Below, piece after piece: positions 1,935 to 53,100 of a stretch of DNA of 64,000 bases. The notes below the pieces were generated by a model. The model had not been told where the DNA came from and ran no database searches. It saw nothing but the letters and a program-made list of their open reading frames with translations. Origin of the DNA: Heterodontus francisci (taxonomy: Eukaryota); contig NC_090387.1 of the NCBI RefSeq assembly GCF_036365525.1, positions 18,197,766 through 18,261,765 of the forward strand. The letters are read 5' to 3'. How positions within the stretch are numbered: the first letter of the stretch is position 1; each line of letters begins with the position of its first letter. A program made the position numbers and the translations under genes.

Positions 1935-3690
1935 AACAGAACAAGAAGAAGCAGCAGGAGTAGGCCATCCAGCCCGTTGAGCCTGCTCTGCCATTCAATA
2001 AGATCATGGCTGATCTGATCTTGGCTGGAACTGCACCTTCCTGCTTGTTCCCCATAACCTTTGACTCCCCGATAGTTCAAGAAACTGTCTAACTCAGCCT
2101 AGAATACGTTCAATGACTCAGCCTCCACTGGTCTCTAGGGTGGAGAATTCCAAAGATTCACAACCCTCAGAGATGAAATTGCTCTTCATCCCTGTCTTAA
2201 ATGTGCGACCCCTTATTCTGAAACTCTGCCCCTAGTTCTAGATTCATGAGGGGAAACATCCTCTCAGCATCTACCCTGTCATGCCGCTCAGAATCTTATG
2301 TTTCAATAAGATCACCTCGCCTTCTCTAAACTCCAATGAGTACAGGCCTAACCTGTTCAACCTTTCCTCATAAGACAACCCCTTCATCCCAGAAATTAAC
2401 TTAGCAAACCTTCTCTGAACTGCCTCCAATGCAAGTATATCCCTCCTTAACTATGAAGACCGAAACTGTACGCAGTACTGTAGGTGAGTTCTCACCAATG
2501 CTCTGTATAGTTGTAGCAAGACTTACCTACTTTTATACTCCATCCCCCTTGCAATAAAGGTCAATGTTCCATTTTTTAAATGAATTTATGGGATGTGGGT
2601 GTCGTTGGCTAGGCCAGCATTTATTGTCCATCCCTAATTACTTGCTGTACCTGCATGCTAACTTTTGGTCATTTATGTACGAAGACACCAAGATCTCTCT
2701 GTAGTCCGTCTCGATTTAAATTATATTTTGCTTTTCTATTTTTCCTACCAAAGTGAAAATTTTCCCACATTATACTCCATCAGACAAATTTTTGCCCACT
2801 TGCTTAACCTATATATCTCTCTTTGCAGACAGTTTGTGTCCTCCTCACAACTTGCTTTCCCATGAATCCTTGTATCACCAGCAAATTTGGCTACAATACT
2901 CTCTATCCTTTCATCCAAGTCATTATATAGATTGTAAATTGTTGAGGCCCCAGCACTGATCCATGTTACAGTTTGCCAACCTGAAAATGACCCATTTATC
3001 CCAACTGTTTCCTGTTAGTTTGCCATTCTTCTATCCATGCTAATATATTACCCCCACCACCATGAGCTGTTATCTTGTAACCTTTTATGTGGCACCTTAT
3101 CGAATGCCTTTTGGAAATCCAAATACACTACATCTACTAGTTCCCCTTTATCCACCCTGCTTGCTACATCCTCAAAGAACCCTAATAAATTTGTCAAACA
3201 CAATTTCCCTTTCATAAAACCATGTTGACTCTGCTTGATTGTATTACGATTTTCACAGTGGCGCAGTGTTTAGCACCGCAGCCTCACAGCTCCAGTGACC
3301 CGGGTTCAGTTCTGGGTACTGCCTGTGCGGAGTTTGTACGTTCTCCCTGTGACTGTGTGGGTTTCCGCCGGGTGCTCCGGTTTCCTCCCACAGCCAAAGA
3401 CTTGCAGGTTGATAGGTAAATTGGCCATAGTGTAGGTAGGTGGTAGGCGAATGGTAGGGAATATGGGGTTAATGTAGGATTAGTATAAATGGGTGGTTGT
3501 TGGTCGGCACAGACTAGGTGGGCCGAAGGGCCTGTTTCAGTGCTGTATCTCTAAATAAAATAAATAAATGTTCTGCTACTACTTCCTTAAAAATGAATTG
3601 TAGCATTTTCCCAATGACAGATGTTTGGCTAACTGGCCTATAGTTTCCTGCTTTCTATTACTCTCCTTTCTAGAATAGGGGTGCTGGGAG
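1935..3690 (-). mobile_element. CR1 LINE 3' portion, interrupted by a V-SINE (3255-3568) and a short LINE tail (~2570-2640)
   Basis: Reverse complement gives CR1 RT motifs (HGFMKGK.CLTNL, DFQKAFDKVPH) and the CR1 3' tail; CR1 sequence resumes after the SINE. Confidence 0.8.
3255..3568 (+). mobile_element. V-SINE (HE1-like tRNA-derived SINE)
   Basis: tRNA-like head (GTGGCGCAGTG...GGGTTCAGTTC), V-domain core GTTCTCCCTGTGACTGTGTGGGTTTCCGCCGGGTGCTCCGGTTTCCTCCCACA, CR1-like tail GGGCCGAAGGGCCTGTTTCAGTGCTGTATCTC(TAAA)n. Confidence 0.9.
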
Positions 3691-7640: not shown

Positions 7641-9111
7641 TTGGGGCTTTTAGTAAATTTGGAAAAGGCTATTGTGATGCATATTGTATAAGCTATTGGA
7701 ACAAGAGAAGATGATAGGTTCAATATCTTGCAAACATTGGAATATGTAGACTTTATGTCTTACTACATTTCAGATGTTATATGCTGTCTGAAGAACATTT
7801 CTGTTATATCCTGTGAGGTGAGGGTGGAAGTATATAGAAATAAAAGCATATTTGAATTATGCAGGCACTCCAGCAACAGAACATACTGGAGCCGCAAAGT
7901 CTGCAACTTCTTGATTGGCATGTATGAACTGTGCTTTGTAACATTGTTTAAGCTTTAGCCTTACAAGTCCAAAATCTATGTTAGCACTTTCTACTATAAC
8001 AGTATTCCTATCCTAATCAAACAGTATATCCACTGACTTATTTGCTACAGGAATTCTGCAATAATGTAAATACAATGTCTACTGCATGTTTCCTGTCTTG
8101 TCGCACTCCTGTCACATTCAGATACTCTTATTTTTTAAGAGTGTGTAGGAACACTCCAGAAGCATCACTTGAATATCTACAGCTCTTTGGTCTTTGCCCA
8201 CTTTGTAGTTTTAATAAGTGACTTATCTACACTTTAACAGAACAATAATGTTTTAAATGGTATGTCTTATGAGGACAAGAACATGTCCTTTGGTCTGTCT
8301 TAAGTGGTACGGCAGGAAATTTGATTGTTTAATCAGAATATGAAATGTTGTTTGCATTTCCTGTCATGCTGTTCCAGTTTCTCTATATTGCTCTTTAAGT
8401 GAAATAGGCAGCCATTTGGAATGTACAGAGAAACTCGAGGAATAGAAAATTAATATGTGTGCAGACTTAATCTTACAAATCACATTTAAGACATCCATTC
8501 TGGTCTGGAGCCTGAATAGTAATTAAACTCTGAACCAATCTAGTGTTTGTAGAAAGCAATTAGAATTTGTGCCTTCCTGTAACAACAGAATAATGTATTG
8601 TGCATAACATGGTAAAATGCTTCTGTCTCTGTTTGATTGAAAGTAAGTCTTGCATCGTTTTAGTGCCTTATTGTTGACTCCCAACTAATTTTGTAAGAAG
8701 TATTTTTAAATTGCTCACTTTAAGTTCTCTGAAATTAAGTTTAGTCGAAGTAAATTCAAAATGACGACCTGTTGGTATTTAGCGAAGGTAGGGAACAGCC
8801 AGTGACTTAAGTGTTAGTGCTTGCAAGTACTTTGTTAGAATATAGATGGAAAATGCTGAAACAGTAGGTAGAGGTTGATTAGAAAATTTTTATGGTTATG
8901 GTGGAGTGCTGTAGCTGTTTTTGTCACCTAATTTTTTCACATTTCTCTTTCCATTAAAGGGTTTATACTAGAAAAAAGTAGAGAGCGAATCAGAGCAAAC
9001 TGGGGAAAAGTTAGTTCATATTTGAGCCATGTATTTTCATTCTCATCTGTGTTTGCATTTTCTTTTTGATTTCCAGCTTTTGTGGTTTATCTTTGTATGC
9101 TTTGTTATTTT

Positions 9112-9438
9112 TTTTTAGAGATACAGCACTGAAACAGGCCCTTCGGCCCACCGAGTCTGTGCCGACCAACAACCACCCATTTATACTAATCCTACATTAA
9201 TCCCATATTCCCTACTACGTCCCCACCATTCTCCTACCACCTACCTATATTTGGGGCAATTTACAATGGCCAATTTACCTATCAACCTGCAAGTCTTTGG
9301 CTGTGGGAGGAAACCGGAGCACCCGGCGGAAACCCAAGCGGTCACAGGGAGACCTTGCAAACTCCGCACAGGCAGTACCCAGAATTGAACCCGGGTCGCT
9401 GGAGCTGTGAGGCTGCGGTGCTAGCCACTGTGCCACCC
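9112..9438 (-). mobile_element. V-SINE (HE1-like)
   Basis: Full-length reverse-complement copy of the 3255-3568 SINE. Confidence 0.9.
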
Positions 9439-11899
9439 TTTGTTAGGATTTTCTAGTCTTCGTTCCATGTAATGCAAACAACTAAAACAGTAAGATATGA
9501 AAATTTTGTTCACAAATCCTCTGTTCCATTCTCCTTGTTTCACTGTTTCTCTCTGCTCTTTCCTCTTCTGTGTCCTGTACTGATACTAATCCTCTGGAAT
9601 GAGGGAAATGTGATAAAATCAAATGAAAAAGGCTATTTCAGTAGTCCCTCGTTACGACTATTGAAAATTTCCTTGCTCACCATCTGGTACAGTTGAGGAC
9701 AATATGGGGAGGAGCGTTTTGCTGGGCCTGTGTCGTCTTTGGTTTAGATCAAGTGGAATTTTTGCATGGCTCTGGTGTAGCTAGTAAATATGTAATGAAA
9801 ATGCCAAGTATGCTTATCATTGTGAAGTATGTGCTCCGAGGTGAGGGCTGGGAGGGAGAGGAGGAGGAATCATGATTTATGTATCTACTAGCTGACCAAA
9901 GTACACACCTGCACCGCAGTAAGAATTTTTCCCCAGGCTCAAACTGGGCTTGGCATCTGGTATGTGTGAAGTGATTATGTTTGCATCAAATCAGAGGCCT
10001 GTTGTGTGTCCTGTCAGAATAATTGGTCTTTTAATTATTGGTGGTTGGGTTTAAAAAAAGGGGCTCTGGTTAATGGTGTGTAGCAAATCATTATTGTGAT
10101 AATGACTTGGGATACATCAAACTGGAAGGAGCGCCAGAGATTGTATAATACCTGAAAACTGGAGATTATCCAGTAAATACCATTTCTCTAAATGAATGGA
10201 TAGCAAGAAGGTGGTTGAATTACTTAAATTAATGCTTTTCTATGAAATCATAACCCAGCAGCAGTGAAATTGTAAATTGAAAAGATCATCCTCAATCTGT
10301 AAAGTGAGTATTTCTATTGATGCCATATTTGTTTCCATTTAACTTGTTCAAGATAGAGGATTTTTTTGCCCCAATTGGTGAGACTTCACGGGACCCAATT
10401 GCTTGAAACACCTTGATTGTTTGCACATTCCTTCATCCAGATAGAGTGGTTAAATGCACTTTGGAGTCTGCTCCCATGGAGGTAAATGCTGACACAAACT
10501 GGCTGGGATGATTTCTGTATTTAAGTGCGTGCTGTGTTGGGAACCAATGCAAGATTTATCAACTTATATTTTTGGCTAAAGGAAGTCTCCCTGCTCGGTT
10601 CTTGATTTGAGATGATGTCTCTTTGAGACAATTAAAACTTGTGCTTGTTTTGAAAGGGTTCAAGGGAGGTGATGAGGCTTGTGGGAAATTACTTAAACTC
10701 TGTTTAGGTGTGTCATTTTTGAATGTTGAACTGTTGTAAAATGATCATGGCAATATTCTGGCCTAATCTGTCCTAATACAAGACTGAATAGGAAGATCGG
10801 GTCAAGTTTTTAAAATACGTTAATCTTTTGTGTAAGAAGTGGCTAAATTTCCCATTCATGTTTAATGTTGTCCCTAGTGCTTAGGTATTGAATATGTCTT
10901 GAGCACAAAGTGTCTAGAGGCTTCTTTATACTGGAGAGTATAACTTCCCTCTTCCTTGTAATCAAGATCCTTCCTCCTATATGTGGAACTGATTATCTTA
11001 ATTGAAGTACTTTGCCCATTAGCAAAACTTTTTTTTGCAGCTTGCCAAATACTGTGTATCCAAGTTCAAAATGAAACCATCGTGCCCACAATAGCAAGAA
11101 TCAAAATATGCCTGATAGCTTCCTTTACACAAACTATAAAATATTTGTTTTGAATCTGATTGGGGAATAGCAGAAAACTTCAAATAAACTAAAATCTGCA
11201 TAAGTAGTAATAGATTTCCTTACAGAGCATTTGGCTGGTACAGTAGAGGCAGTTCACAACATGTTTGTATATGCATGGATGAGGAAGATCATTTGGTTCA
11301 TTTGTTCTGGAAAACTATTGTTTTCGCCCTTGGAGACAGTTTGAGCCGACAGAAATTCATAGCAAGTGTGGTTTTGGGTAAAGAACTTACTGATGTCAGC
11401 CCTCCATTTCCGTTTTTGTTAGTTTTGTTGTTGTGGTTTCATGTATTCTGGACTTGTTTCTTTTTGAGATTCGTTTAGTCATCTTTCAAGTTTGAATTGC
11501 CAAATTATTTATTTATTTTCCCTCCACTTATTTCTCTGATGCTAGGGATCAGATCAATGGCTTCTCTTCACTGTCTTAGGGTTTGAAAACTTTTCTATGC
11601 TTCTGTGATCAACATGGTATATAGTATGCAAGCTCAGGTCTGAGCAGGGCTGTATCGTTTTAGCATAACATTCTCTAGCTTCTTTAGTGATTTAACAATA
11701 TAGCCAACATTTCATTTGTCACTGCTTATTAAAATAATTATATGTAAAGTGCTTTGAGCTAAATAAAACTTTTTTCTTATTTGCTTTTATTGGTGCCCCT
11801 ATGGTGACAATTTACTAATAACCAAGTTTATGAACATTCCATATAATTCAGTATACTATGAAAGATATCATTTGCATGTATGTCCACACTTTTTTCAAT

Positions 11900-12884: not shown

Positions 12885-15090
12885 TTGACAAGAGTCAACA
12901 GTTTCATGGAAGAGAAGTCATGGTTGACAAATGTATAATTTTTTTGATACAGTAACTAGCGGGGTTTCTTTTCTTTCTTTCTTTCTTTCTTTTGGGCCTC
13001 CTTATCTCGAGAGACAATGGATACGCGCCTGGAGGTGGTCAGTGGTTTGTGAAGCAGCGCCTGGAGTGGCTATAAAGGCCAATTCTGGAGTGACAGGCTC
13101 TTCCACAGGTGCTGCAGAGAAATTTGTTTGTTGGGGCTGTTGCACAGTTGGCTCTCCCCTTGCGCCTCTGTCTTTTTTCCTGCCAACTACTAAGTCTCTT
13201 CGACTCGCCACAATTTAGCCCTGTCTTTATGGCTGCCCGCCAGCTCTGGCGAATGCTGGCAACTGATTCCCACGACTTGTGATCAATGTCACACGATTTC
13301 ATGTCGCGTTTGCAGACGTCTTTATAACGGAGACATGGACGGCCGGTGGGTCTGATACCAGTGGCGAGCTCGCTGTACAATGTGTCTTTGGGGATCCTGC
13401 CATCTTCCATGCGGCTCACATGGCCAAGCCATCTCAAGCGCCGCTGACTCAGTAGTGTGTATAAGCTGGGGGTGTTGGCCGCTTCAAGGACTTCTGTGTT
13501 GGAGATATAGTCCTGCCACCTGATGCCAAGTATTCTCCGAAGGCAGCGAAGCTGGAATGAATTGAGACGTCGCTCTTGGCTGGCATACGTTGTCCAGGCC
13601 TCGCTGCCGTAGAGCAAGGTACTGAGGACACAGGCCTGATACACTCGGACTTTTGTGTTCCGTGTCAGTGCGCCATTTTCCCACACTCTCTTGGCCAGTC
13701 TGGACATAGCAGTGGAAGCCTTACCCATGCGCTTGTTGATTTCTGCATCTAGAGACAGGTTACTGGTGATAGTTGAGCCTAGGTAGGTGAACTCTTGAAC
13801 CACTTCCAGAGCGTGGTCGCCAATATTGATGGAGCATTTCTGACATCCTGCCCCATGATGTTCGTTTTCTTGAGGCTGATGGTTAGGCCAAATTAATTGC
13901 AGGCAGACGCAAACCTGTCGATGAGACTCTGCAGGCATTCTTCAGTGTGAGATGTTAAAGCAGCATCGTCAGCAAAGAGGAGTTCTCTGATGAGGACTTT
14001 CCGTACTTTGGACTTCGCTCTTAGACGGGCAAGGTTGAACAACCTGCCCCCTGATCTTGTGTGGAGGAAAATTCCTTCTTCAGAGGATTTGAACGCATGT
14101 GAAAGCAGCAGGGAGAAGAAAATCCCAAAAAGTGTGGGTGCGAGAACACAGCCCTGTTTCACACTACTCAGGATAGGAAAGGGCTCTGATGAGGAGCCAC
14201 CATGTTGAATTGTGCCTTTCATATTGTCATGGAATGAGGTGATGATACTTAGTAGCTTTGGTGGACATCCGATCTTTTCTAGTAGTCTGAAGAGACCACG
14301 TCTGCTGACAAGGTCAAAGGCTTTGGTGAGATCAATGAAAGCAATGTAGAGGGGCATCTGTTGTTCACGGCATTTCTCCTGTATCTGACGAAGGGAGAAC
14401 AGCATGTCAATAGTCGATCTCTCTGCACGAAAGCCACACTGTGCCTCAGGGTAGACGCGCTCGGCCAGCTTCTGGAGCCTGTTCAGAGCGACTCGAGCAA
14501 AGACTTTCCCCACTATGCTGAGCAGGGAGATTCCACGGTAGTTGTTGCAGTCACCGCGGTCACCTTTGTTTTTATAGAGGGTGATGATGTTGGCATCGCG
14601 CATGTCCTGGGGTACTGCTCCCTCGTCCCAGCACAGGCATAGCAGTTCATGTAGTGCTGAGAGTATAGCAGGCTTGGCACTCTTGATTATTTCAGGGGTA
14701 ATGCTGTCCTTCCCAGGGGCTTTTCCGCTGGCTAGGGAATCAATGGCATCACTGAGTTCCGATTTGGTTGGCTGTATGTCCAGCTCATCCATGACTGGTA
14801 GAGGCTGGGCTGCATTGAGGGCAGTCTCAGTGACAGCATTCTCCCTGGAGTACAGTTCTAGGTAGTGCTCAACCCAGCGGTCCATCTGTTTGCGTTGGTC
14901 AGTGATTATGTCCCCCGATTTAGATTTGAGGGGGGTGATCTTCTTGATGGTTGGCCCAAGAGCTCTCTTCATGCCATCATACATTCCTCTGATGTTTCCG
15001 GTGTCTGAGCGGGGTAGATAAAGGGAAACCAATGGAAATAGTCTATTTAGATTTTAAGGAGGATTTCGATAAGGTGTGACACAAGAAGTG
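12885..15090 (+). mobile_element. Old CR1 RT fragment split by the RTE insertion
   Basis: Joining 12885-12965 to 15016-15090 restores a CR1-like KSxLTNxxxFFDTVTSGVDKGKPMEIVYLDF..FDKV stretch. Confidence 0.7.
12966..15007 (-). mobile_element. 5'-truncated RTE-clade LINE (RT + C-terminal C2H2-like zinc finger), young
   Basis: ORFs 13893-15032 and 13039-13938 encode NYRGISLL, FIDLTKAFD, KQGCVLAP, LLFADD and FLCSTCGRACHSRIGLYSH; (GAAA)n tail at 12966-12993; exact 8-bp TSD AGCGGGGT at 12958-12965 and 15008-15015. Only one in-frame stop (13893-13895) and one small frameshift (~13835) are visible. Confidence 0.93.
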
Positions 15091-15649: not shown

Positions 15650-15985
15650 AATTTCGGCTGACACTGCAGTGCAGTACTGAGGGAGTGCTGCACTGTCAGA
15701 GCTGCAATCTTTCAGATCAGATCTGAAATGGAGACCCCATCTGCCCCCTCGGGTGAATGTAAAAGATCCCTGGCCCTGTTTTGAAGAGTAGGGGATTTTT
15801 CAATATATATCCCTCAACCAAAATCACTAAACAAATGATCTGGTCATTATCACATTGCTGTTTGGAAGAGTTTGCTATATTGCAACAGTGACTACACTTC
15901 TAAAAGTACTTAACTGGCTGTAAAGCACTTTGAGACATCTGGTGGACATGAAGGGGGCTTTATAAATGCAAGTCTTTTTTTTTTA
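15650..15985 (+). mobile_element. Deu-domain SINE (SacSINE1-like)
   Basis: CAGTGCAGTACTGAGGGAGTGCTGCACTGTC...GTAAAAGATCCC...ATCTGGTCATTATCACATTGCTGTTTG and an L2-like tail TATAAATGCAAGTC. Confidence 0.8.
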
Positions 15986-22223: not shown

Positions 22224-22625
22224 TTAGTGTGGTACTGGTTTAGTCTCATTGTTGCTGGGGAGAGGGATGGAGTGTGTAGTTAGAGAATGGAGTTTGAAGC
22301 AAGGACTGAAAGTAATGGCTTCAGTCTTCCCAATAAATAATTGGAGGAAATTCCTGCTCATCCAGTACTGGATGTCAGATAAACAGACTGACAATTTAGC
22401 AGCAGTGGAGGAGTCAAAAGAGGTGGTGGTGGTAAAGTAGAGCCGGGTGTCATCAGCATACATGTGAAGACTGATGCTGTGCTTTCGGATGGTGTTGCCT
22501 AGGGGCAGCATGTAGATGAGAAATAGGAGGGGGCCAAGGATAGATCCTTCGGGGACGCCAGAGGTAACTGTACGGGAGTAGGTAGAGAAGCCATTGCAGG
22601 TGATGCTCTGGCTACGATTAACAAA
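22224..22625 (-). mobile_element. L2 LINE RT fragment
   Basis: ORF 22224-22637: VTSGVPEGSILGPLLFLIYMLPLG...HMYADDTRLY...WMSRNFLQL..GKTE. Confidence 0.85.
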
Positions 22626-22699
22626 TGAATTGAACATAGTCTGTAACTGAAAAAATTTTCATAACTGCAAAAGGAGCCAATATCATTTTTTTTTCTTTT

Positions 22700-23130: not shown

Positions 23131-23426
23131 AAGTAACTGACATTGGTTGGGACATTTCTCTGAGCATTAGTAGCACTTTAGTACCTCACCCAACAGCCCC
23201 TTCTTCAGCGGTCAGTCTTGTCTATTTGTTATTGGGCTCTGTGTATATCTTTCCAGCAGGAGTCACTGGACAGCAATCAAAATAGGAACTATGGCTGGTG
23301 TCTTTCCCACCCCCAACCCCTTATTTGACTTAATTGCTCCAAAGCCAGTTGTAATGTCCAACCATTAAACTTGACTCAAATTTAGCAAACTCAACATAGC
23401 CAGGTTATATAAATATTGAACTCTGG

Positions 23427-23750
23427 TAGATGCCAGTGTTGCAGCTGTACTGGAACAGCTTGGGTAGGGGTGCGACAAGTTCTGGAGCACAGGTCTTGTG
23501 TACTATTGCCAGAATGTTGTCAGGGCGCATTGCCTTTGCAGTATCCAGTGCCTTCAGTCGTTTCTTAATATCACATGGAGTGAATTGAATTGGCTGAAGA
23601 CTGGCATCTGTGATGCTGGGGACTTCAGGAGGAGGCTGAGATGGATCATCCATTTGACACTTCTGGCTGAAGATTGTTGCAAATGCTTCAGCCTTATCTT
23701 TTGCACTGATGTGCTGGGTTCCCCTATCCTTGAGAATGGGGATATTTGTG
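23427..23750 (-). mobile_element. Inverted internal fragment of the tRNA-headed LINE family
   Basis: Reverse complement aligns to ~25330-25655 (TNIPIL..G.QHISAKDKAEAFATIFSQKC...CAPEL.APL.KLFQYS) at roughly 90% by eye. Confidence 0.9.
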
Positions 23751-23783
23751 GCAATTAAGCAATTGAGCAATTAAGTCAAATAT

Positions 23784-26700
23784 GGGGAGGTGGTGGCATA
23801 GTGGTATTGTCACTGGACTAGTAACCTGGAGACCCAGGGTATTGCTTTGGGGACATGGGTTCAAATCCCACCACAGCAGAAGGTGGAATTTGAAATCAAT
23901 TAATAAATCTGGAATTAAAAGCAAGTCTAATGATGGCCATGAAACCATTGTCGATTGTTGTAAAAACCCATCTGGTTCACTAATGTCCTTTTAGGGAAGG
24001 ACATCTGCTGTCCTTACCTGGTCTGGCCTACATGTGACTCCAGACTCTCAGCAATGTGGTTGACTCTTAAATTTGACTCTTACATGCCCTCTGAAATGGC
24101 CTAGCAAGCCACTCAGTTGTATCTAACCGCAACAAAGTCAATAAAAAGGAATGAAACCAGACGGACCACCCGGCATTGACTTAGGCACCAGAAATGACAC
24201 CAGCAAACCCAGCCCTGTCGACCCTTCAAAGTCCTCCTTACTAACATCTGGGGTCTTGTGCCAGAGTTGGGAGAGCTGTCCCACAGACTAGTCAAGCAAC
24301 AGCCTGAAGTAGTCATACTCACGGAATCATACCTTACAGACAATGTCCCAGACACTGCCATCACCATCCCTGGGTATGTCTTGTCCCATGGGCAGGGCAG
24401 ACCCACTAGAGGTGGTGGCACAGTGGTATACAGTAGGGAGGGAGTTGCCCTGGGAGTCCTCAACATCGACTCTGGACCTCATGAAGTCTCATGGCATCAG
24501 ATCAAACATGGACAAGGAAACCTCCTGCTGATTACCACCTCCCACCCTCCCTCAGCTGATGAGTCAGTACTCCTCCATGTTGAAGAGCACTTGGAGGAAG
24601 CACTGAGGGTGGCGAGGGCACAAAGTGTTCTCTGGGTGGGGGACTTCAATGTGCATCACCAAGAGTGGCTCGGTAGCACCACTACTGACCGAGCTGGCCG
24701 AGTCCGAAAGGACATAGCTGCTAGACTGGGTAGGCAGCAGATGATGAGGGAACCAAAAAGAGGGGAAAACATACTTGACCTCGTCCTCACCAATCTGCCT
24801 GCCGCAGATGCATCTGTCCATGATAGTATTGGTAGGAGTGACCACCGCACAGTCCTTGTGGAGACGAAGTCCTGCCTTCACATTGAGGATACCCTCCATC
24901 GTGTTGTGTGGCACTACCACCGTGCTAAATGGGATAGATTTCAAATAGATCGAGCAATGCAAAACTGGGCATCCATGAGGCGCTGTGGGCCATCAGCAGC
25001 AGCAGAATTGTATTCAACCACAATCTGTAACCTCATAGCCCGGCATATCCCCCACTCTACCATTACCATCAAGCCAGGAGACCAACCCTGGTTCAATGAA
25101 GAGTGCAGGAGGGCATGCCAGGAGCAGCACCAGGCATACCTCAAAATGAGGTGTCAACCTGGTGAAGCTACAACACAGGACTATCTGCGTGCCAAACTGC
25201 GTAAGCAGCATGCGATAGACAGAGCTAAGTGATCTCATAACCTACGGATCAGATCTAAGATCTGCAGTCCTGCCACATCCAGCCGTGAATGGTGGTGGAC
25301 AATTAAACAACTGACTGGAGGAGGTGGCTCCACAAATATCCCCATCCTCAATGATGGGGGAGCCCAGCACATCAGTGCGAAAGATAAGGCTGAAGCATTT
25401 GCAACAATCTTCAGCCAGAAGTGCCGAGTTGATGATTTATCTCGGCCTCCTCCTGAAGTCCCCAGCATCACAAATGCCGGACTTCAGCCAATTCAATTCA
25501 TTCCGCGTGATATCAAGAAACGACTGAAGGCACTGGAAACTGCAAAAGCTATGAGCCCTGACAATATTCCGGCAATAGTACTGAAGACCTGTGCTCCAGA
25601 ACTTGCCGCGCCCCTAGCCAAGCTGTTCCAGTACAGCTACAACACTGGCATCTACACTGCAATGTGGAAAATTGCCCAGGTATGTCCTGTTCACAAAAAG
25701 CAGGACAAATCCAACCCGGCCAATTACCATCCCATCAGCCTACTCTCAATCATCAGTAAAGTGATGGAAGGTGTCATCAACAGTGCCATCAAGCGGCACT
25801 TGCTTAGTAATAACCTGCTCAGTGATGCTCCGTTTGGGTTCTGCCAGGGCCATTCAGCTCCTGATCTCATTACAGCCTTGGTTCAAACATGGACAAATGA
25901 GCTGAACTCAAGAGGTGAGGTAAGAGTGACTGCCATTGACATCAAGGCAGCATTTGACCGAGTACGGCATCAAGGAGCCCTAGCAAAACCGAGGTCAATG
26001 GGAATCAGGGGGAAAACCCTCCGCTGGCTGGAGTCATACCTAGCGCAAAGGAAGATGGTTGTGGTTGTTGGAGGTCAATCATCTGAGCTCCAGGACATCA
26101 CTGCAGGAGTTCCTCAGGGTAGTGTCCTGGGCCCAACCATCTTCAGCTGCTTCATCAATGACCTTCCTTCAATCATAAGGTCAGAAGTGGGGATGTTCGC
26201 TGATGATTGCACAATGTTCAGCACCATCCGTGTCTCCTCAGATACTGAAGCAGTCCGTGTAGAAATGCAGCAAGACTTGGACAATATCCAGGCTTGGGCT
26301 GAGAAGTGGCAAGTAACATTTGCGCCACACAAGTGCCAGGAAATGACTATCTCCAACAAGAGAGAATCTAACCATCTCCCCTTGACATTCAATGGCATTT
26401 CCATCACTGAATCCCCCACTATCAACATCCTAGGGGCTACCATTGACCAGAAACTGAACTGGAGTAGCCATATAAATACCGTGGCTACAAGAGCAGGTCA
26501 GAGGCGAGGAATCCTGAGGCGAGTAACTCACCTCCTGACTCCCCAAAGCCTGTCCACCATCTACAAGGCGCAAGTCAGGAGTGTGATGGAATACTCTCCA
26601 CTTGCCTGGATGGGTGCAGCTCCAACAACACTCAAGAAGCTCGACACAATCCAGGACAAAGCAGCCCGCTTGATTGGCACCCCATCCACGAATATTTATT

Positions 26701-27073
26701 CCCTCCCCCTCTAACGCACAGTGGCAGCAGTGTGTACCATCTACAAGATGCACTGCCACAATGCACCAAGGCTTTTTAGACAGCACCTTCCAAACCCACG
26801 ACCTCTACCAACTAGAAGGACAAGGGCAGCTGATGCATGGGAACACCACCACCTACAAGTTCCGCTCCAAGCCACACACCATCCTGACTTGGAACTGTAT
26901 CATTGTTCCTTCACTGTCGCTGGGTCAAAATCCTGAAATTCCCTTCCAGACAGCACTCTGGGTGCACCTACCTCACATGGACTGCAGTGGTTCAAGAAGG
27001 CCACCACCACCTTCTCAAGGGCAATTAGGGATGGACAATAAATGCTATTCTATCCAGTGATGAATTTTAAAAA
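23784..27073 (+). mobile_element. Apparently full-length tRNA-headed, ORF1-less non-LTR retrotransposon (CR1/L2-group APE-RT)
   Basis: A box TGGCATAGTGG 23794-23804 and B box GGTTCAAATCC 23858-23868. One frame runs from 24096 to ~27000 with APE (VILTESYL, RGGG, WVGDFNVHH, ILDLVLTN, SDH) and RT ([30 protein letters not shown]), broken only by point stops at 24102, 24177, 24195, 25230, 26712 and 26934. AATAAA and A-rich tail at the end. Confidence 0.9.
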
Positions 27074-27169: not shown

Positions 27170-27600
27170 ATTCTTAGAGTCAGAGAATGATACAACACAA
27201 AAAGACATCATTCAGCCTATTGTGCTTCAGTGAGTTCTTTGATCGAGCTATTCATTTAATTCCTGTTCTTTCTACATAGCCCTGTAATTCTTTTTATTCT
27301 TTCATGGAATGTCAGTGTCATGGCAAGGCCAGCATTTATTGCCCATTCCTAATTGCCCTAGAGAAAGTGGTTGTGAGCGACTTTCTTGAACTACTGCAGT
27401 CCATGTGGTGAAGGTGTTTCTTCCCTTCAAGTATTTGTGCAATTCCCTTTGAATGTTACTACTGAATCTACTTCCACCAGTCTTTCAGACAGTGCATTCC
27501 AGATCACTTTGTTTCCACATGTCACTTTTCTTTTTGCCAATCACCTTATATCTGTGTCTTCTGATTACTGCCCTCTACCTCTGGAAACAGTTTCTCATTT
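27170..27600 (-). mobile_element. CR1 3' end with an inserted 3' tail of the tRNA-headed LINE (~27290-27418)
   Basis: GGCCAGCATTTATTGCCCATTCCTAATTGCCC is the reverse complement of the family 3' end; the flanks resemble CR1 tails elsewhere in the window. Confidence 0.65.
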
Positions 27601-28529
27601 ATATAAATTTCTTTGAGTGCTGTGGCAAAGTCTTGGTGATATACTCTGCCACATTCTGTGCACACACACACAGTGCTCTACTGCGTAATGATGTGTGTCT
27701 TTTTCCTTTGTTAAATTCCATTCTACATACTTGATCGAAATGGCTGAACAAAATGATTTAAATCTTGTTTATAGTGTAGCAATCTTAATTTTAATACCAT
27801 GACTAGTGTTCTTTGAAAACTTATGTTCCTAAAGTCTTAAAAACAGAGCATCTCGCTGAGATTAGCAAATGCTGTACATAATGTGATGGCGGATATTTCA
27901 TCTCTTGAGGAGGGCTGCTTTCCCAGTAGCAACACGGCCACATTGTAAGCAGAAAGTTTTGGCTTTCTGCCTTGTGCCTTTTGAGAGGCTCCAAGATGCG
28001 GAATGATGTGGTCTTTTGTATTATTTAGCACAAGATTACTCCAAGAAATTTAAGAATGTACAGTGAAAAGTTGAAGTAAATTCATTCAGTGTTGAAGAGT
28101 CAATTAATTTGCAGTTTGTTAACTGAATCTAATTTTGAGTTGTGGTGATTGAATGCAACGTATACATTTTCTTAAACTAATAAAATCCTACATATCCAAC
28201 AGTAAAATACACTTTACGAATTTCACTGGGCTTCATAAATTCCCTTTCAATTGTTTAAAGAATCAGTCGTCTTGCTCTGTAAAGAACACACTCAAAGCAT
28301 CCAGAGATAAAAAGATATTGTTTAACAACATTTTTGGGTGGGGGAACTTTTATGGTGTCAATTATTCTTGTATGGTGTGGTGCAATGCACTGGTGCTTAA
28401 GCCATGCTGTGCCATAGAAATGTAGGTGATGAGTTCCCAAACCCAACTGGACTGCTGTTGGGACCCATTTCAAAATTGCACATCTCTTTTGGACAACATG
28501 TAGAATAGTAGCGGCAGGAAAAACAAAGA

Positions 28530-28980
28530 AAACCTTGCATTCATATAGTGCCTTTCACAATCAGAGGTTGTCCCAAAGTGCTTTACAGCCAACGAAGTAC
28601 TTTTGAAGTGTAGTCACTGTTGTAGTGTAGGAAACATACCAAACTTGCACACAGCAAGCTCCCACAAACAGCAATGTAATAATGACCAGATAATCTATTT
28701 TTGTGATGTTGGTTGAGGGATAAATCTTAGCCACACACCAGGGAGAACTCCCCTGCTTTCCTTTGAAATAGTGTCATGGGACCTTTTACATCCACCTGAG
28801 AGGGCCTCAGTTTAACATTTCATCTGAAAGAAGTAAGTACCGCCAACAGTGCAGCACTGCCTTAGTATTGCTCTGGAGTGTCAGCCTTGATTTTTTTGTG
28901 CTTAAGTCCTGGAGTGGGACTTGAACCTACAAACTTCTGTTTCAGAATTGACTGTGCTACCAACTGAACCATAGTTGACA
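28530..28980 (-). mobile_element. Deu-domain SINE (SacSINE1-like), full length
   Basis: Reverse complement of the 40035 and 41855 copies, including the tRNA head (GGTTCAGTTGGTAGCAC...GGTTCAAGTCCCACTCCAG). Confidence 0.85.
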
Positions 28981-29149
28981 CTGTCCAAATTGAAGCAGCT
29001 TCTCATTTATTGAATTAAATAATTTATTGTAGATTTTTCTTAAATGGCATCTATAGAACCTATAACCACACAGTTAAAAGCAAATTAACATTGTGTAAAC
29101 GACCTTCATATTTTGGGAGCATCGTACTTACTTTCCCACCTCCATCCTG

Positions 29150-33879: not shown

Positions 33880-34220
33880 AGTATTTGAAGGAGAGTGGAG
33901 GTCTTGCTGGTGTCCTGGCCAATATAACATAACTTAAAAACAGATTATCTGGTCATTATTACGTTGCTGTTTGTGGGAGCTTGCTGTGTACATATTGGCT
34001 GCTGCTTTTCCTACATTATAAGTGACTACATTTCAAAAGTACCTCATTTGGCTGTGAAGCGTTTTGAGATGTCCAGAGGTCGTGAAAGGCGCTATAGAAA
34101 GGGATTAGTGTAGGATTAGTATAAAATGGGTGGTCAATGGTCGGCACAGACTCGGCGGGCCGAAGGGCCTGTTTCAGTGCTGTATCTCTAAATCTAAATC
34201 TAAAAAAAATGCAAGTCTCT
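33880..34220 (+). mobile_element. Deu-SINE 3' part with a 5'-truncated V-SINE tail (~34100-34208) inserted near its end
   Basis: The SINE end AAGGCGCTATAG|AAATGCAAGTC is split by GGATTAGTGTAGG...GGGCCGAAGGGCCTGTTTCAGTGCTGTATCTC(TAAATC)n. Confidence 0.75.
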
Positions 34221-39470: not shown

Positions 39471-40034
39471 TTTATATATATATATAAAAAAAATATTGAT
39501 TTTACAGTAACTGATTTCAAGGATATGACTTGAAATCTATAGATGGTGTCAGCAGTGAACAACTGGCCCATTTCATATGCTTCCAACAAAAAATGACAGT
39601 TGGCCTAAAACATATTTGGTTATACTGGAATACTCCTAACCCTGTACAGCTCCTGAAGCTGGTTTGTGAAAGGGTGTTAACTTGTGCTGTGAAAGTGATA
39701 TTCAAATTGCTTGTCTGAAGCCTGAACACAAATTAAGGTTAGAAGGGTTTTTCTTTTGCAGAGGATGAGCAAACTTAATTTACTGGTGTGCCACTTTGTG
39801 GTATTAACCTGCTGAGTAATGTTGCTAAAAATTATTTTGAAACCAGCTAGAGTTTTGGGAACTACCCCATCTGGTTCACAGTTTTTTGTTGCGAGAGGAA
39901 ATGTGCAAATGCATTGACACTGCCACCTTCATCACACCCCTAGGAAAAATGTCTACTATAGATTGCATCCAATCAAAAATTGTTTTTGTTTGTTTGAAGT
40001 GTGGCCTATGTTTGTGAATTTTGTACGTCAGTAG

Positions 40035-40468
40035 TGGTTAAGTTGGTAGTGTTCTTGCCTCTGAGTCATAAGATTGTGGGTTCAAGCCTTACTCCAGAAC
40101 TTGAGTGTTAAAGACAAGGCTCAGGCTCCAGTGCAGTACTGAGGGAGTGCTGCATTGTCGGAGGTCTTGTCTTTTGGATGAAACATTAAACCGAGGCCCT
40201 GACTGCCCTCTGAGGTGGATGTAAAAGATCCCATGGCACTAATTTGAAGGAGAGCAGCACACCCCTGGTGTCCTCACCAATGTTTATCCCTCAATCAATA
40301 TCACACAAATGCATTATCTGGTTATCATCACAGTGCTGTTTGTGGGAGCTTGCGGTGTGCAAATTGGCTACAGTGTTTCAAACATTACAACAGTACTTTA
40401 TTGGCTGTAAGGCACTTTGAGATGTCTGGTGGTTGTGATAAGCGCTATATAAATGCAAGTCTTTCTTT
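40035..40468 (+). mobile_element. Deu-domain SINE (SacSINE1-like), full length
   Basis: tRNA head with GGTTCAAGCC, Deu core CAGTGCAGTACTGAGGGAGTGCTGCATTGTCGGAGG...AAACCGAGGCCC, tail GCGCTATATAAATGCAAGTC. Confidence 0.88.
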
Positions 40469-41851
40469 TTGATATAGTGCTGTTGGATGTTCTGTAGAAA
40501 TCATTTTGACCTTAAGCTTTACATGAAAAATTATTTGCCTAAAGCACTGTATATGTTGTCAAACTTTCTGTCCACTGTTGCAATGTTTGAAGAAGAGAAG
40601 GGAGAGAAGGTGGTGAGTCCATAGCCTGTGCATTATCTAGCACTTGCTATGTTCAAATGATCAACACAGATATTTTCAATCCCATCATATCTTGGCTTTA
40701 GCTAGATAATAGTGCAACAGTGATGGCATGGAAATGTTGACCATTTCTGGACCTGGTGAATTTGGTTTCTACCTGGATTAAAGGCAACTGTGGGACAAAA
40801 CTCTCAGCTGTCAAAATCCAATTCTTCTTCGCCCCTTGTTGTTCTCTCCCCTCAACCACAGACTGTAGTTGGACATCAGTTAGCATAATGGAGAAATCTA
40901 TGTTGATCATCATAGCCTCATAAGTAACATTAGCAATTGTGATGTACCTACAGGGGCACACTATAGCACCAAATTTTAAATCTATAATTCCTATTCTTTA
41001 GAAAAGCACTATTTTAGTGCACCACTAACACCTCATCTAGTTTAACCAGTGAATAGCTAAGTCATACAGATCAGGAAAATCCCAGGCTTGATTTGCAGTC
41101 TGTACTAAATTATGTCAGTCAGGGAAATAGTACAAGTGATAAAATTGGCCTCAATGCCAGGGATAGGGAGGTTAAAATTACACTTGATGATTATAATGCT
41201 TTAAGTGGGCATGGATGTTTGAGGACAAAATCAAACTTGGTTTTGGCGCCATCCACAGTCAAATAGTCTTTTAGTGCACAGTGCCCTTGTACTTGAAAAA
41301 ACATTAGTTGAGGAAATACCCTCAGTGGATGGCATTTGCTATGGAAGTGTACCCCAGCTTTAATCAACACCTTTTGCAAGAGGAGAAATTGGAAGGACAA
41401 AGCAAATCTCCTAAGTTTTAAGTCAAAAATTCCATGCAGTATTGTAATACATTTGTAAACCTGTCATTCTGTTAGCTTTAGAACATAAGCTTTATACATA
41501 TTTTCTACTAATTTCAAGATCGCCTGCTTTGAGCAACTTATTCATTCTGAGTAACTGTGGCATACAGTGCCATTTTTACGAACGCTTTGGAATGAGGAAA
41601 GATGTTTCTAGGACTTTAATTCTCATTCACCTGGATAACAACCTCGACACACTTTGTAATTTTTCTGTGAGACATGCCAAGGTGCTATATAAATTAAAGT
41701 TCTTTATTCATAATTGGAATGTTGTGTGGTCAGGTTAGCGAAGCAATTGTTTTGATGGATAACTGATACAGCATTCCCTCACACAAAATAAGCTAGCAAC
41801 CAGTGTAATGTACAAAGATAGTCTGTTTTGAGATTGTTCCCCTTCCAAGTG

Positions 41852-42292
41852 TCAGTCATGGTTCAGTTGGTAGCATCTTTGCCTCTGAGTCACAAGTTTG
41901 TGGGTTCAAGTCCCACTCTAGAGACTTGAGCACAAAAATCTGGCACTCCGGTACCATAGCAAGTAAGTGCTGCACTGTTACAGGTGCCATTTTCTGGACA
42001 AGACACTAAACCAAGACTCTGTCTGCTTTAGAAATGGACTTGAGATCCCATGACACTGTTTTGAAGAAGAGCAGAGAGTTATCCCCTGTGTCTATCCATC
42101 AATCAACATAAGAAAAACAAAAAAGCAGATTATCTGCTCATTGTCACTTTGCTGTTTGTGGGATCTTGCTGTGTGCAGTTGGCTGCTGCATTTCCTACAT
42201 TGCAACAGTGACTACACTTCAAAACGTCTTTCATTGTCTTTTGGGACATCCTGAGGTTGTGAAAGGCGCTATGTAAATGCGAATCTTTTCAT
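41852..42292 (+). mobile_element. Deu-domain SINE (SacSINE1-like), full length
   Basis: Same head, core and tail order as the 40035 copy, more diverged. Confidence 0.85.
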
Positions 42293-43074
42293 TTTCTTTA
42301 GAGTTAACTGGGATTTCTTTGCTATTGTGCCATTGAAACATATAACTAATGCCCAACAACGTTTGAAATAGTTAATCAAAGTTTTTCTAGTAGATGGTTG
42401 TTAAATGCAGCACACACTTTCGAACCCAGGAAGGTCCATACTGAATCATGGTTCCATTTGGTGCAGTAGGAGGGATAATCCAAATGGCCTTTGGTCCCAT
42501 GAGCGAAGGAATGGGAAAAGAAATCAATCGAGGTTTTCAATTCTGATTATTTTTCAATTACTTCTGATGCAAAGTATGCTTTTGAGGGTCCGAATATGAG
42601 TTGGCACCTTCAGGGGAGAAGTGGAGAATGAATCGGTGTATGTATCGTGCTATTTCAGTACATAATCTGTGAGAATAGGAACTCATTGCTTTGACTGGTC
42701 TCAATAGGGTCATCTAGAATTTCTCCCCCACCACCTCCCCCTCACATTTCAAAATTATATGTTGCGGTATAAGTGGTGGAAAATAGGAAAATATACCCAA
42801 AAGTAATACGAAAAGAGAATGCTGGTTAGTATATAGTAATGATGAAGTCGTGTTGACATGCCCATCATTCCTATTTATGCTGGTACTGGAGGAAACTTTC
42901 CCTAATGTCACCTCAAGGTTGTTGTAGACAAGATGTCAGCTGCTCCAAAGCAGAAAACAAGATAACAAAAGGCAACAAGGTGACTAAATATAGTGATAGC
43001 TCTTATCCAAGATTATTTTGGGCCAGTGCAGGGGAATGTACTTGAGGATCACACCGCTTCCTACAACTTTTGCA

Positions 43075-43315
43075 GATTTTTTTATTCGTTCGGGGGATGT
43101 GGGTGTCGCTGGCTAGTCCAGCATTTATTACCCATCTCTAATTGCCTTTGAGAAGGTGGTGGTGAGCTGCCGTCTTGAACTGCTGCAGTCCTTGGGGTGT
43201 AGGTACACTCACAGCGCTGTTAGGAAGGGAGTTCCAGGATATTGACCCAGTGACAGTGAAGGAACAGCAATATAGTTCCAAGTCAGGATGGTGTGTGGCT
43301 TAGAAAGGAACTTGA
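43075..43315 (-). mobile_element. 3' end of the tRNA-headed LINE family
   Basis: Reverse complement of ~26880-27060 / 52915-53095, with A-tail. Confidence 0.85.
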
Positions 43316-45004: not shown

Positions 45005-45325
45005 CATTTATTTATTTAGAGATACAGCACTGAAACAGGTCCTTCAGCCCACTGAGTCTGTACCAACCATCAACCACCCATTTATACTAATTCTACATTA
45101 ATCCCATATTCCTACCACATCCCCACCTTCCCCTACCACCTACCTATACTAGGGGCAATTTATAATGGCCAATTTACTGATCAACCTGCAGGTCTTTGGC
45201 TGTGGGAGGAAACCAGAGCACCCGGCGAAAACCCACACGGTCACAGGGAGAACTTGCAAACTCTGCACAGGCAGTACCCAGGTCGCTGGAGCTGTGATGC
45301 TAACCACTGCACCACTGTGCCACCC
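45005..45325 (-). mobile_element. V-SINE (HE1-like)
   Basis: Same family as 9112-9438, with a small deletion in the head. Confidence 0.9.
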
Positions 45326-45394
45326 TGTTCTGTTCTGTTAGTTCTGTTCCAGTTGGTACGCATCCAAAAGAAAATATTTACATTCTTCTCGGAA

Positions 45395-47360: not shown

Positions 47361-47431
47361 TGATCATTTTTTAAAGTTATTTTAAGATGATTTTGTTTCT
47401 AATAGTCCTGTTAGTATATTTGGGTGCATTG

Positions 47432-47750
47432 TTTAGTTTAGAGATACAGCACTGAAACAGGCCCTTCGGCCCACTGAGTCTGTGCTGACCATCAACAACC
47501 CATTTATACTAGTCCTACACTTAATCCCATATCCCTGCCACATCCCCACCTGTCCCTATATTTCCCTACTACCTACCTATACTCGGGGCAATTGCTAATG
47601 GCCAATTTACCTATCAACCTGCAAGTCTTTGGCATGTGGGAGGAAACCGGAGCACCCGGAGGAAACCCGCGCAGACACAGGGAGAACTTGCAAACTCCAC
47701 ACAGGCAGTACCCAGGATTGAACCCGGGTCGCTGGGTCAATGTGCCGCCA
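47432..47750 (-). mobile_element. V-SINE (HE1-like)
   Basis: V-domain core and CR1-like tail; part of the head is deleted. Confidence 0.88.
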
Positions 47751-48789
47751 TTGCTAGATTTAAATTTTCTAAAGCATTATAAAGTGACCAAATATTGAAT
47801 GGAAAAATATGGGTTAAAAGATGTCGCAGTTCAGAATTAGGAAAGGGCATTCTGGATGATTATTATATAGAATGTACAGCACAGAAACGGGCCAGATGGT
47901 GCAACTGGTCTGTGCTGATGTTTGTGCTCCACAAGAGCCTGCTCCCACCCTATTTCATCTGACCCTTTAGGCATAATGTTCTATTCCTTTATCCCTCATG
48001 GACATATCTAGCTTCCCCTTAAATTCATCTGTGCTATTATCCTTGACTGCTTCTTGTAGCAGGTTCCACATTCTCACCACTCTTTCGGTAAAGAGGTTTA
48101 TCCCTAATTTCCTGTTGGATTTATTGATAACTTATTTTTCTGTTACCTAGCTATAGCTAATGATAGCCTATATGGTTTTTAGAATGGTGTAAGTGGACAG
48201 TGTAGGACTATACAACCTGATCACCCACTCTCCAATTGGATAAAACAGAGATATGTGCATGCACAGAGCTCTGCTTAATATTGTGGGTGAGATGTTCTGC
48301 GATCTTGTCAGCTCTTCCCTAACCTTTTAAGAAAATTTTAGGAATATACCAAAAAGCCTTTAACTTTGAGAACCACAGGGCTTAGCTTGCTGGATAGTTA
48401 CAGTTAGGCAGAAGCAGTAATAGAAACAATTTCTTCCAGGCAGTCTAGTTAGCAGAACACTAAATCAACAAACATTTGGCTAAGTTGTACAGCCCAACTT
48501 GTGTTGATAGGACACAAGATATGCAGTGTAATTGTCTCATAAGGAAAATCCAAAGGCTTGAATAAATTCTAACCAGCTGTAATTGAGATATTATGATGTA
48601 TTGTGATGAATTCAAAAATAAAATGAAAATATTTTTCTTCTGATTTCAATAAAGGCTTTATGGCTGTTTACAATGTCTTTTATTTGTTTATTCATTAAAA
48701 ATATTGTGTGTGATGCACACTTCTGTCCACAAACCTCACTTCCAGATATCATAATTTTTGGCCGTGTTTTTCTGTCAATATTTCCCATT

Positions 48790-49165
48790 ATTTTATTTAT
48801 TTAGAGATACAGCACTGAAACAGGCCCTTCGGCCCACCGAGTCTGTGCCGACCAAGAACCACCCACTTATACTCCATCTCCTTGGCCTCCTTATCTCGAG
48901 AGACAATGGGTAAGCGCCCCATTTATACTAACCCTACAGTAATCCCATATTCCCTACCACCTACCTACACTAGGGGCAATTTACAATGGCCATTTACCTA
49001 TTACCTGCAAGTCCTTGGCGGTGGGAGGGAACCAGAGCACCCGGCGAAAATCCACGCGGTCACAGGGAGAACTTGCAAACTCCACACAGGCAGTACCCAG
49101 AATTGAACCCGGGTCCCTGGAACTGTGAGGCTGCAGTGCTAACCACTGCGCCACTGTGCCGCCCT
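48790..49165 (-). mobile_element. V-SINE carrying a 44-bp RTE 3'-end insertion
   Basis: Standard V-SINE with extra 48874-48917 that matches the RTE terminus at ~12991-13030. Confidence 0.9.
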
Positions 49166-51145: not shown

Positions 51146-53100
51146 AACCTGTTCACTCAGCTCCTGACCTCATTACAGCCTTGGTTCTGGGGTGAGGTGA
51201 GAGTAACTGCCCTTGACATCAAGGCAGTATTTGACTGAGTATGGCATCAAGGAGCCCTAGCAAAACTGGAGTTGTGGTTGTTGGAGGTCAATCATCTCAG
51301 TCCCAGGATATCACTGCAGGAGTTCCTCAGGGCAGTGTCCTAGGCCCAGCCATCTTCAGCTGCTTCATCAATGACCTTCCCTCCATCATAAGGTCAGAAG
51401 TGGGGATGTTCGCTAATGATTACACAATGTTCAGCACCATTCGCAACTCCTCAGATACTGAAGCAGTCTGGGTAGAAATGCAGCAAGACCTGGACAATAT
51501 CCAGGCTTGGGCTGATAAGTCACAAGTAACATTCATGCTACACGAGTTCCAGGCAGTGACCATCTCAAACAAGAGAGAATCTAACCATCTTCCAAGCAAG
51601 TGAAGTTCAATGCAGAGAAATGCGAAGTGATTCATTTTGGTAGTAAGAACATGGAGAGACAATATAAAATAAAAGGTATAATTCTAAACGGAGTGCAGGA
51701 GCAGAGGGACCTGGGTGTTTTTGTGCATAAGTCATTGAAGGTAGCAGGACAGGTTGAGAGAGCGGTTAATAAAGCATACAGTATCCTGGGCTTAATTAAT
51801 AGGGGCATAGAGTACAAGAGCAAGGAAGTTATTTTGAACTTGTGTAAGACACTAGTTCAGCCTCAGCTGGAGTACGGTGTCCAATTCTGGGCGCCGCACC
51901 TTAGGAAAGACGCGAGAGCATTGGAGAGAGTACAGAAAAGATTCACGAGAATGGTTCTGGGGTGAGGAATTTCAGTTATGAAGGTAGATTGGAGAAGTTA
52001 GGACTGTTTTCCTTGGAGAAGAGAAGGCTGAGAGGTGACTTGATAGTGGTATTCAAAATCATGAGGGGTCTGGACAGAGTAGATAGAGAAAGGCTGGTCC
52101 CATTCATGAAAAGATCGAGAACGAGAGGGCACAGATTTAAAGTATTTGGTAAGAGAAGCAAAAGTGACATGAGGAAAAACTTTTTCACGCAGCGATTGGT
52201 TAAGGTCTGGAATGCGCTGCCTGAGTGTGTGGTGGAGGCAGGTTCAACTGAAGCATTCAAAAGGGAATTAAATATATGAAAAGGAAGAATGTGCAGGGTT
52301 ATAGGGAGAAGGCGGGGGAATGGAACTGTGGGAGTTGCTCTTTCAGAGACCCAGTGCAGACACGATGGGCCGAATGGCAGCCTCCCATGCTATAATGATG
52401 CTGTGATCTCCCCTTGATGTTCAATGGCATTACCATCGCTGAATTCCCCCACTATTAACATTCTTCTAGTCAACATTGACAAAAAACTGAATTGGACCAG
52501 CCATATAAATGCTGTGGCTACAAGAGCAGGTCAGAGGCTGGGAATTCTGTGGCGAGTAATCCACCTCCTGACTCCCCAAAGCCTGTCCACCATCTACAAG
52601 GCACAAGTCAGGAGTGTAATGGAATACTCTCCACTTGCCTGGATGGGTGCAGCTCCAACAACACTCCAGAAGATTGACACCATCCAGGACAAAGTAGTCC
52701 ACTTGATTGCTACGCCATCCATCACCTTCAAGATTCATTCCCTCCACCACTGATGCACAGTGGCAGCAGTGTACCATAGACAAGATGCACTGCAGCAACT
52801 CATCAAGGCTCCTTCCACAGCACCTTCCCAACCTGCAACCTCTACCACCAAGAAGGACAAGGGCAGCAGATGCATGGGAACACCACCACCTGCAAATTCC
52901 CATCCTAGCCACACACCATCCTGACTTGGAACTATATCGCCATTCCTTCACTGTCGCTGGGTCAATATCCTGGAACTCCCTTCCTAACAGCACTTTGGGT
53001 ATACCTGCACCCCAAGGACGACAGCAGTTCACCACCTTCTCAAGGGCAAGTAGGAATCGTAGCCAGCGATGCCCACATCCTATGAACAAATTTTTTAAAA
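51146..53100 (+). mobile_element. 5'-truncated copy of the tRNA-headed LINE family, split by a CR1
   Basis: 51155-51593 and 52406-53100 are collinear with ~25855-27060. Confidence 0.9.
51594..52405 (+). mobile_element. CR1 3' portion
   Basis: ORFs 51600-51965 and 51962-52279: [44 protein letters not shown]. Confidence 0.9.

Follow-up and report, generated by a model that had tools for sequence, protein, structure and literature searches.

The 64,000-nucleotide stretch of Heterodontus francisci DNA analysed here (the window) contains a LINE whose tRNA-like head moved together with the rest of the element. Independent copies share one family architecture, consisting of this head, a leader, a single frame coding for an AP-endonuclease and a reverse transcriptase (APE-RT) and a 3' tail, and the family has SINE-sized derivatives. 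The coding, tRNA-headed LINE family is of high copy number, with thousands of members. Judged from their sequence, full-length members carry an A/B-box head of tRNA-Thr origin, are likely to be transcribed end to end by Pol III and have probably given rise to SINE-sized families by repeated internal deletion.

The copy in the window (23784..27073, + strand) is full-length and decayed, as seen from its end-to-end colinearity with other genomic copies and a family length of ~3.3 kb, and departs by 4.9% from a column majority drawn from 21 copies. Its head (23787..23878, +), derived from tRNA-Thr(AGT) and enlarged by 20 nt inserted into the variable arm, contains an A box (23794..23804, +) whose motif is identical in the family majority and a B box (23857..23867, +) that is of the canonical GGTTCGAATCC type in family copies. 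A non-tRNA leader (23879..24120, +) follows; it is common to the derived SINE families, and deletion junctions cluster at its end. The APE-RT frame (24105..27028, +) is 975 codons from stop to stop in the family and holds both enzymatic domains, as had been proposed: an AP-endonuclease domain (24243..24845, +; Pfam PF03372, E 2.5e-11, and PF14529, E 3.5e-10) and a reverse transcriptase domain (25698..26441, +; PF00078, E 3.2e-33). The 3' tail (27015..27073, +), made up of AATAAA, a short ATGA-type repeat, a T-run and an A-run, is partly deleted in this copy and is retained by the derived SINEs. There is indeed no room for an ORF1, with only ~320 nt 5' of the frame, a longest ATG ORF of 19 codons in that interval and no alternative 5' end. 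In the window copy the frame carries five copy-specific stops and a 4-nt deletion. At three of the five (24177, 24195 and 25230) a TGA replaces the CGA of the family, in agreement with the CpG decay suggested by the earlier note, and the other two are TAA at a CGA codon (26712) and TGA at TGG (26934). That note had described a frame with only point stops; point stops are present, but the loss of 4 nt close to the frame's 3' end had been overlooked.

To follow the head through the genome, an ORF-start query without the head was compared with the 6.0-Gb assembly, giving 40 scored matches of 5,635 candidates, the window copy included. Twenty-seven of the 40 copies begin at or before element nt 10, 21 of them exactly at nt 1, and the remaining 13 are 5'-truncated, beginning at nt 31-296. 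The 400-nt flanks upstream of these 40 copies yielded two pairwise matches and no common extension. A second set was obtained by searching with a foreign 956-aa relative; among the 30 of 48 matches examined, one of which overlaps the first set, 21 begin at or before nt 7 and nine at nt 104-520. Of five older copies that were picked through their internal or 3' sequence and extended upstream, four likewise start with the head. Neither an ORF1 nor an alternative 5' end was present among the independent copies examined. The check set beforehand, that independent full-length copies with distinct flanks start at the tRNA head and lack an ORF1, was thus passed. Because independent copies with unrelated flanks share the head, a SINE that merely happens to adjoin a truncated LINE at this locus is refuted as an explanation, and its probability is negligible. 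A 21-base motif taken from the leader's end occurs without mismatch 12,252 times in the genome (control, 0), and contigs of four organisms bridge the leader and the ORF start and also show the SINE joint. The family behaves as LINEs do, with dispersed copies, a common 3' end, variable 5' truncation and unrelated flanks; long target-site duplications (TSDs) were absent from 20 full-length copies, in which the best matches were 1-6 nt. A search of the genome for a strongly diverged subfamily returned mostly copies of 86-97%.

The family fragments that had been listed at 2570, 23427, 27290, 43075 and 51146 were borne out. These are a 3' tail fragment (2570..2639, −), an internal fragment matching element nt 1547-1872 (23426..23751, −), two 3' fragments (27291..27416, −, and 43079..43314, −, the latter at 82%) and an RT-region fragment (51154..51593, +; 76-90%). 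A sixth, older 3' fragment (52406..53057, +; 83%) was missing from that list. A gap of 32 nt lies between the internal fragment and the 5' end of the element; the fragment is a separate insertion, since its identity to the element is 90.5%. Elsewhere in the genome, family copies are often nested within or adjoin one another, and several follow immediately on a 3' tail (loci L041, L045, L079, L281, L282, L285, L293, L294, L331 and L342), a pattern that may reflect abundance or target preference. Other repeats in the window include a young CR1-type LINE at 56347-58689 (+), which served as a control; its copies are 95-97% alike and their frames are open for 650-730 codons in several. A SINE-like repeat of ~320 nt has at least seven copies in the window (3254-3567, 9088-9439, 34101-34211, 45007-45326, 47415-47735, 48788-49165 and 55386-55742), and an older dispersed repeat of ~450 nt, ~70% between copies, occurs at 15656-15984, 28519-28982, 40027-40470 and 41848-42299. 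Distant LINE RT fragments at 14067-14801 (−) and 22305-22646 (−) match the focal protein at 28-30%.

The identity of the head was analysed by tRNA prediction and by alignment. The A box (23794), the anticodon-like loop (23818-23824), the extra hairpin and the B box (23858) are all where the earlier note had placed them, and its tRNA-Thr-like (AGT) assignment is matched by ARAGORN, which calls tRNA-Thr(agt) at 23787-23878 as its sole call in the window. The tRNA check is thus positive with ARAGORN but not with Rfam, which returned no tRNA-family row; for the head and leader Rfam gave nothing near the gathering score, the best hit being weak and to the tmRNA clan (E 0.35; two overlapping hits from that clan were omitted). 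A pattern search of the genome gave nine matches, including two identical intact tRNA-Thr(AGT) genes (L308:1492-1565, −, and L311:1469-1542, +); the seven others resemble heads without the insert. When aligned to the L311 gene, the family head is identical at 49 of 63 paired positions and has a 20-nt insert before the T arm, with a score of 54.4 against 22.1 ± 5.2 (maximum 43.7) for 1000 shuffles. On this alignment we consider the family head to be tRNA-Thr(AGT)-derived with a 20-nt insert; the source from which the first LINE acquired it could be a tRNA or an older SINE. The first base of the element lies 3 nt upstream of tRNA position 1 and 10 nt upstream of the A box, and pairing in the acceptor stem, read from the sequence, is poor across the family. 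Both LINE subfamilies have A and B boxes that fit the canonical consensus. The boxes are not measurably more conserved than their surroundings, since 4 of 22 box columns vary (three of them CpG-type) against 51 of 330 leader columns overall. A tRNA-derived head with A and B boxes is what marks a SINE2 element; at 3.3 kb and with a 975-codon frame, the element itself is neither short nor non-coding, as SINE2 elements are and as its ~400-nt derivatives are.

Coding capacity was assessed from a column majority of 21 near-full-length copies, which gave 3,298 nt and the 975-codon stop-to-stop frame, the copies differing by 1.8-5.3%. An older group of 27 copies differs from the younger majority at 75 synonymous and 36 replacement codons, and the APE-RT frame has therefore been under purifying selection between the subfamilies. 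The earlier suggestion of an autonomous element is upheld as far as the selected frame goes, but its start codon was wrong. The ATG at 24096, where the long frame had been thought to begin, has a single codon after it and then TAG (24102), opening a 2-codon upstream ORF (24096..24104, +); 57 of the copies counted read so, and the stop is a family-wide state rather than decay. The first in-frame Met is codon 285, past the endonuclease; the older group has Thr at this position. A low-depth majority of older copies showed an in-frame ATG at codon 13, which was rejected as an averaging artefact, being present in one of 86 copies; codon 13 is AUA in 78 of the 86. Overlapping the start of the long frame is an out-of-frame upstream ORF of 46 codons (24151..24291, +), whose ATG is kept in 80 of 86 copies. 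As to which frame is constrained 5' of the endonuclease, synonymous/replacement differences of 10/8 versus 6/12 give a weak signal, which is uninformative upstream of the domain. The leader showed no folding excess indicative of an IRES-like structure (z −1.2 to +0.2 over seven windows); leader folding of the element itself (23879..24120) is not unusual either (z −0.5 to +0.2). Among the 30 copies selected with the foreign protein, the longest open frame is 942 codons and none is fully open at 975.

The nearest proteins share 42-45% identity with the element across the RT half and are mostly of 920-1000 aa on 3.2-3.9-kb contigs; most matching proteins have a Met start close to the endonuclease. 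In a quick ML tree of 117 RT rows, the element fell among 36 rows with invertebrate proteins of 930-1075 aa, including named lepidopteran ones (SH-aLRT 84, which is not strong), and apart from the CR1-type control of the window (deep supports 84-86). This neighbourhood may be Zenon-like. Lacking an ORF1, and with an RT that does not group with vertebrate-type CR1, as represented by the CR1-type control, the element does not belong with canonical two-ORF CR1/L2 LINEs. It resembles the single-ORF LINEs of the CR1 group, the Zenon-like lineages of insects and marine invertebrates, in having APE and RT in one ORF, no ORF1 and no long TSD, and differs from them by its tRNA head, its lack of an AUG start and a best identity of only 45%. 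The earlier note regarded the lack of ORF1 as atypical; the ORF1 is absent, but single-ORF CR1 and L2 subgroups are described in part of PMC4120745, and Zenon-1_Hm and Zenon-2_Hm have one ORF each according to a portion of PMC4016481.

Internally deleted SINEs had been anticipated as possible offspring, and SINE-sized families joining the same leader to the same tail do exist. One junction pattern has 1,216 exact matches in the genome (control, 0). In 30 loci of this pattern the leader runs to nt 323 and the tail begins at nt 3219, with a 4-nt overlap; many are 5'-truncated, and they are ~70-93% similar to the young LINE. The first 100 of the 12,252 leader-end matches were classified by eye: 49 run into the ORF, 50 jump to the tail and one was unclassified, the jumps comprising 23 of junction A, 14 of B, five of D, three of C-type and five others. 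Seventeen loci were checked for the exact joins, which were 321|3222 (7/7), 324|3194 (5/5), 335|3155 (two), 345|3157, 324|3201 and 324|3208. In small samples, the SINE-B leader differs from the older LINE at 13 of 320 positions and from SINE-A at 25 of 321. At least four different internal-deletion junctions thus gave amplified SINE-sized families, and since the several junctions each have their own variants, repeated deletion from LINE to SINE is favoured.

Pol III terminators on the sense strand were counted as TTTT and TVTTT (as given in part of PMC8466645), TVTTT having been added after the TTTT result was seen. The family majority contains neither and has seven TTT; in lacking any internal Pol III terminator on that strand, it resembles a SINE2 element. 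In individual copies, TTTT is missing from 11 of 21, occurs once in eight and twice in two, and terminators number 0-3 per copy among 30 copies. Synonymous-codon shuffles predicted 4.0 TTTT plus TVTTT where 0 were observed (P = 0.005) and 12.7 TTT where 4 were observed (P = 0.0002), and base shuffles of the whole element predicted 7.8 terminators where 0 were observed (P = 0.0003). For TTTT alone, P was 0.012 with base shuffles and 0.003 with base-frequency codons, and under the strictest nulls the result was not significant, at 0.08 (synonymous shuffle) and 0.21 (first-order Markov); the Markov value for TTT, 0.13, was not significant either. TT is under-represented overall in the family (observed/expected 0.69), and the old and young majorities are non-independent tests. 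By comparison, in each of 10 copies of the CR1-type control from this genome TTTT occurs 4-7 times per 1.95 kb, and four young copies have 13-17 terminators per ~2 kb, near expectation. All 54 of 80 metagenome loci with an ORF of at least 450 codons contain TTTT; after three were dropped because their longest ORF was not the RT frame, the 51 LINE ORFs kept have at least 2.8 terminators per kb (observed/expected median 1.02, minimum 0.61). A nearer relative, L140 (37%), the sole one compared as DNA, has 20 TTTT and no head. No credible tRNA head was found on distant relatives at the 80 metagenome loci, where an A/B scan gave none and relaxed ARAGORN 21 scattered calls, one of them (L143) adjoining an ORF with 30 TTTT runs. 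The controls are richer in T (0.22-0.36, against 0.20 in the element), so that the lack of terminators is support for Pol III read-through and falls short of proof; the lineage may instead have a low-T habit. At the 3' ends of 20 full-length copies, eight have T4-T6 just before the A-run, and these could be a terminal Pol III terminator or a post-insertion change; the latter may apply because most copies carry a single T.

Transcription of the coding RNA by Pol III is, on these sequence features, the likely reading. TFIIIC would bind the A and B boxes, and Pol III would start 10 nt upstream of the A box; terminators would have been purged from the sense strand, since transcription of the 3.3-kb RNA would end early at any one of them. 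Against this stands the general character of Pol III transcripts, which are short, carry no cap and are translated poorly. An uncapped coding RNA of this kind would be translated by a non-canonical route, for example by starting at a near-cognate codon, of which AUA codon 13 is a candidate, or alternatively by re-initiation or frameshifting from the overlapping 46-codon upstream ORF. The protein would then copy the RNA by target-primed reverse transcription, recognizing the 3' tail. Because promoter and tail would both be internal, a deletion keeping the first ~320 nt and the last ~80 nt would yield a ready-made SINE. The full form of this proposal, a LINE lineage of true Pol III genes with a terminator-purged 3.3-kb coding RNA, cap- and AUG-free translation and a role as a SINE factory, is held more tentatively, at slightly less than an even chance.

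The same architecture would also result if Pol II made the coding RNA, the head having been captured as a 5' UTR, with head or leader acting as an internal Pol II promoter, Pol III serving only the short derivatives and the low T-run content being a compositional habit. We consider this rather unlikely. It agrees with the view, in the portion of PMC5786205 available, that LINEs and bipartite derivatives are Pol II transcripts, with the AATAAA near the 3' end and with the easier translation of a capped RNA, and the overall shortage of TT together with the Markov null accounts for the lack of T-runs. Yet both LINE subfamilies have kept canonical A and B boxes, the deficit against synonymous shuffles occurs in no control, TT depletion is itself expected from terminator avoidance, and even a capped RNA would be without a usable AUG.

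Two further readings keep the head and give it another role or another driver. It is very unlikely that the RNA comes from read-through of host promoters and that the tRNA-like head is a processing signal, an RNase P-like cut setting the 5' end as ribozymes do in some LINE clades: copies retain the 3 nt upstream of tRNA +1, the acceptor stem pairs poorly, and terminator avoidance is not predicted. Marginally less probable still is that the tRNA-headed form is a non-autonomous passenger, a long SINE-LINE chimera that was never translated and was mobilized in trans by a partner lacking the head and perhaps carrying an ORF1. The lack of an in-frame AUG before the end of the endonuclease and of any fully open frame in the 30 copies inspected would fit such a passenger, but purifying selection acted between two subfamilies that both bear the head, the copies with the best ORFs found with the foreign protein are head-bearing, and no alternative 5' end was found.

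A tRNA head on the coding LINE itself sets the family apart from the systems described in the parts of the literature available. In Bov-B/Bov-A/Bov-tA, Vingi-2_ACar/SINE2-1_ACar, RIME and hagfish SINE2-9/10_EBu, short elements are formed from LINE 5' and 3' ends (portions of PMC5786205, PMC4494074 and PMC7245038); there, a tRNA head was added after the deletion, whereas here the coding LINE carries it. The sources of such bipartite derivatives are given, in part of PMC5786205, as only RTE, Ingi, Vingi and R2. The cartilaginous fish SINEs HE1/HER1, SacSINE1 and SINE2-1_CM likewise have an A/B-box tRNA head and a LINE-shared tail, but by description, on which this comparison is based, they share only the tail with their LINE; SINE2-1_CM combines an Ala-tRNA head, a CORE body and an L2 tail (parts of PMC3747384 and PMC5499810). 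Human tRNA/LINE-1 chimeric insertions also have tRNA sequence 5' of a LINE, but are 21 one-off loci with mostly antisense half tRNAs (from a portion of PMC13174262), whereas here a whole sense head is found family-wide. T+ SINEs (B2, Dip and Ves) have the same order of AATAAA, T-run and A-tail, and their T-runs grow in copies with short tails (part of PMC8466645); these are mammalian, non-coding and L1-driven, whereas our element is coding. In the portions of the literature searched, and likewise in the available parts of PMC10294476 and PMC11481361, we found no coding LINE described as headed by a tRNA; the supplements of PMC5786205 and PMC7245038 contain consensus sequences that possibly bear on novelty.

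The usual line between SINEs and LINEs sets non-coding Pol III elements against coding Pol II elements, in the words of a passage of PMC5786205, 'SINEs cannot encode a protein'. If our reading is true, a coding retrotransposon on a tRNA promoter would break this division, and the family would provide, in nature, a long Pol III RNA, probably without a cap, whose translation has to do without an AUG. It would also offer a one-step route to SINEs, by deletion of the middle of the element, in place of the two-step template-switch model, with at least four junctions in one genome.
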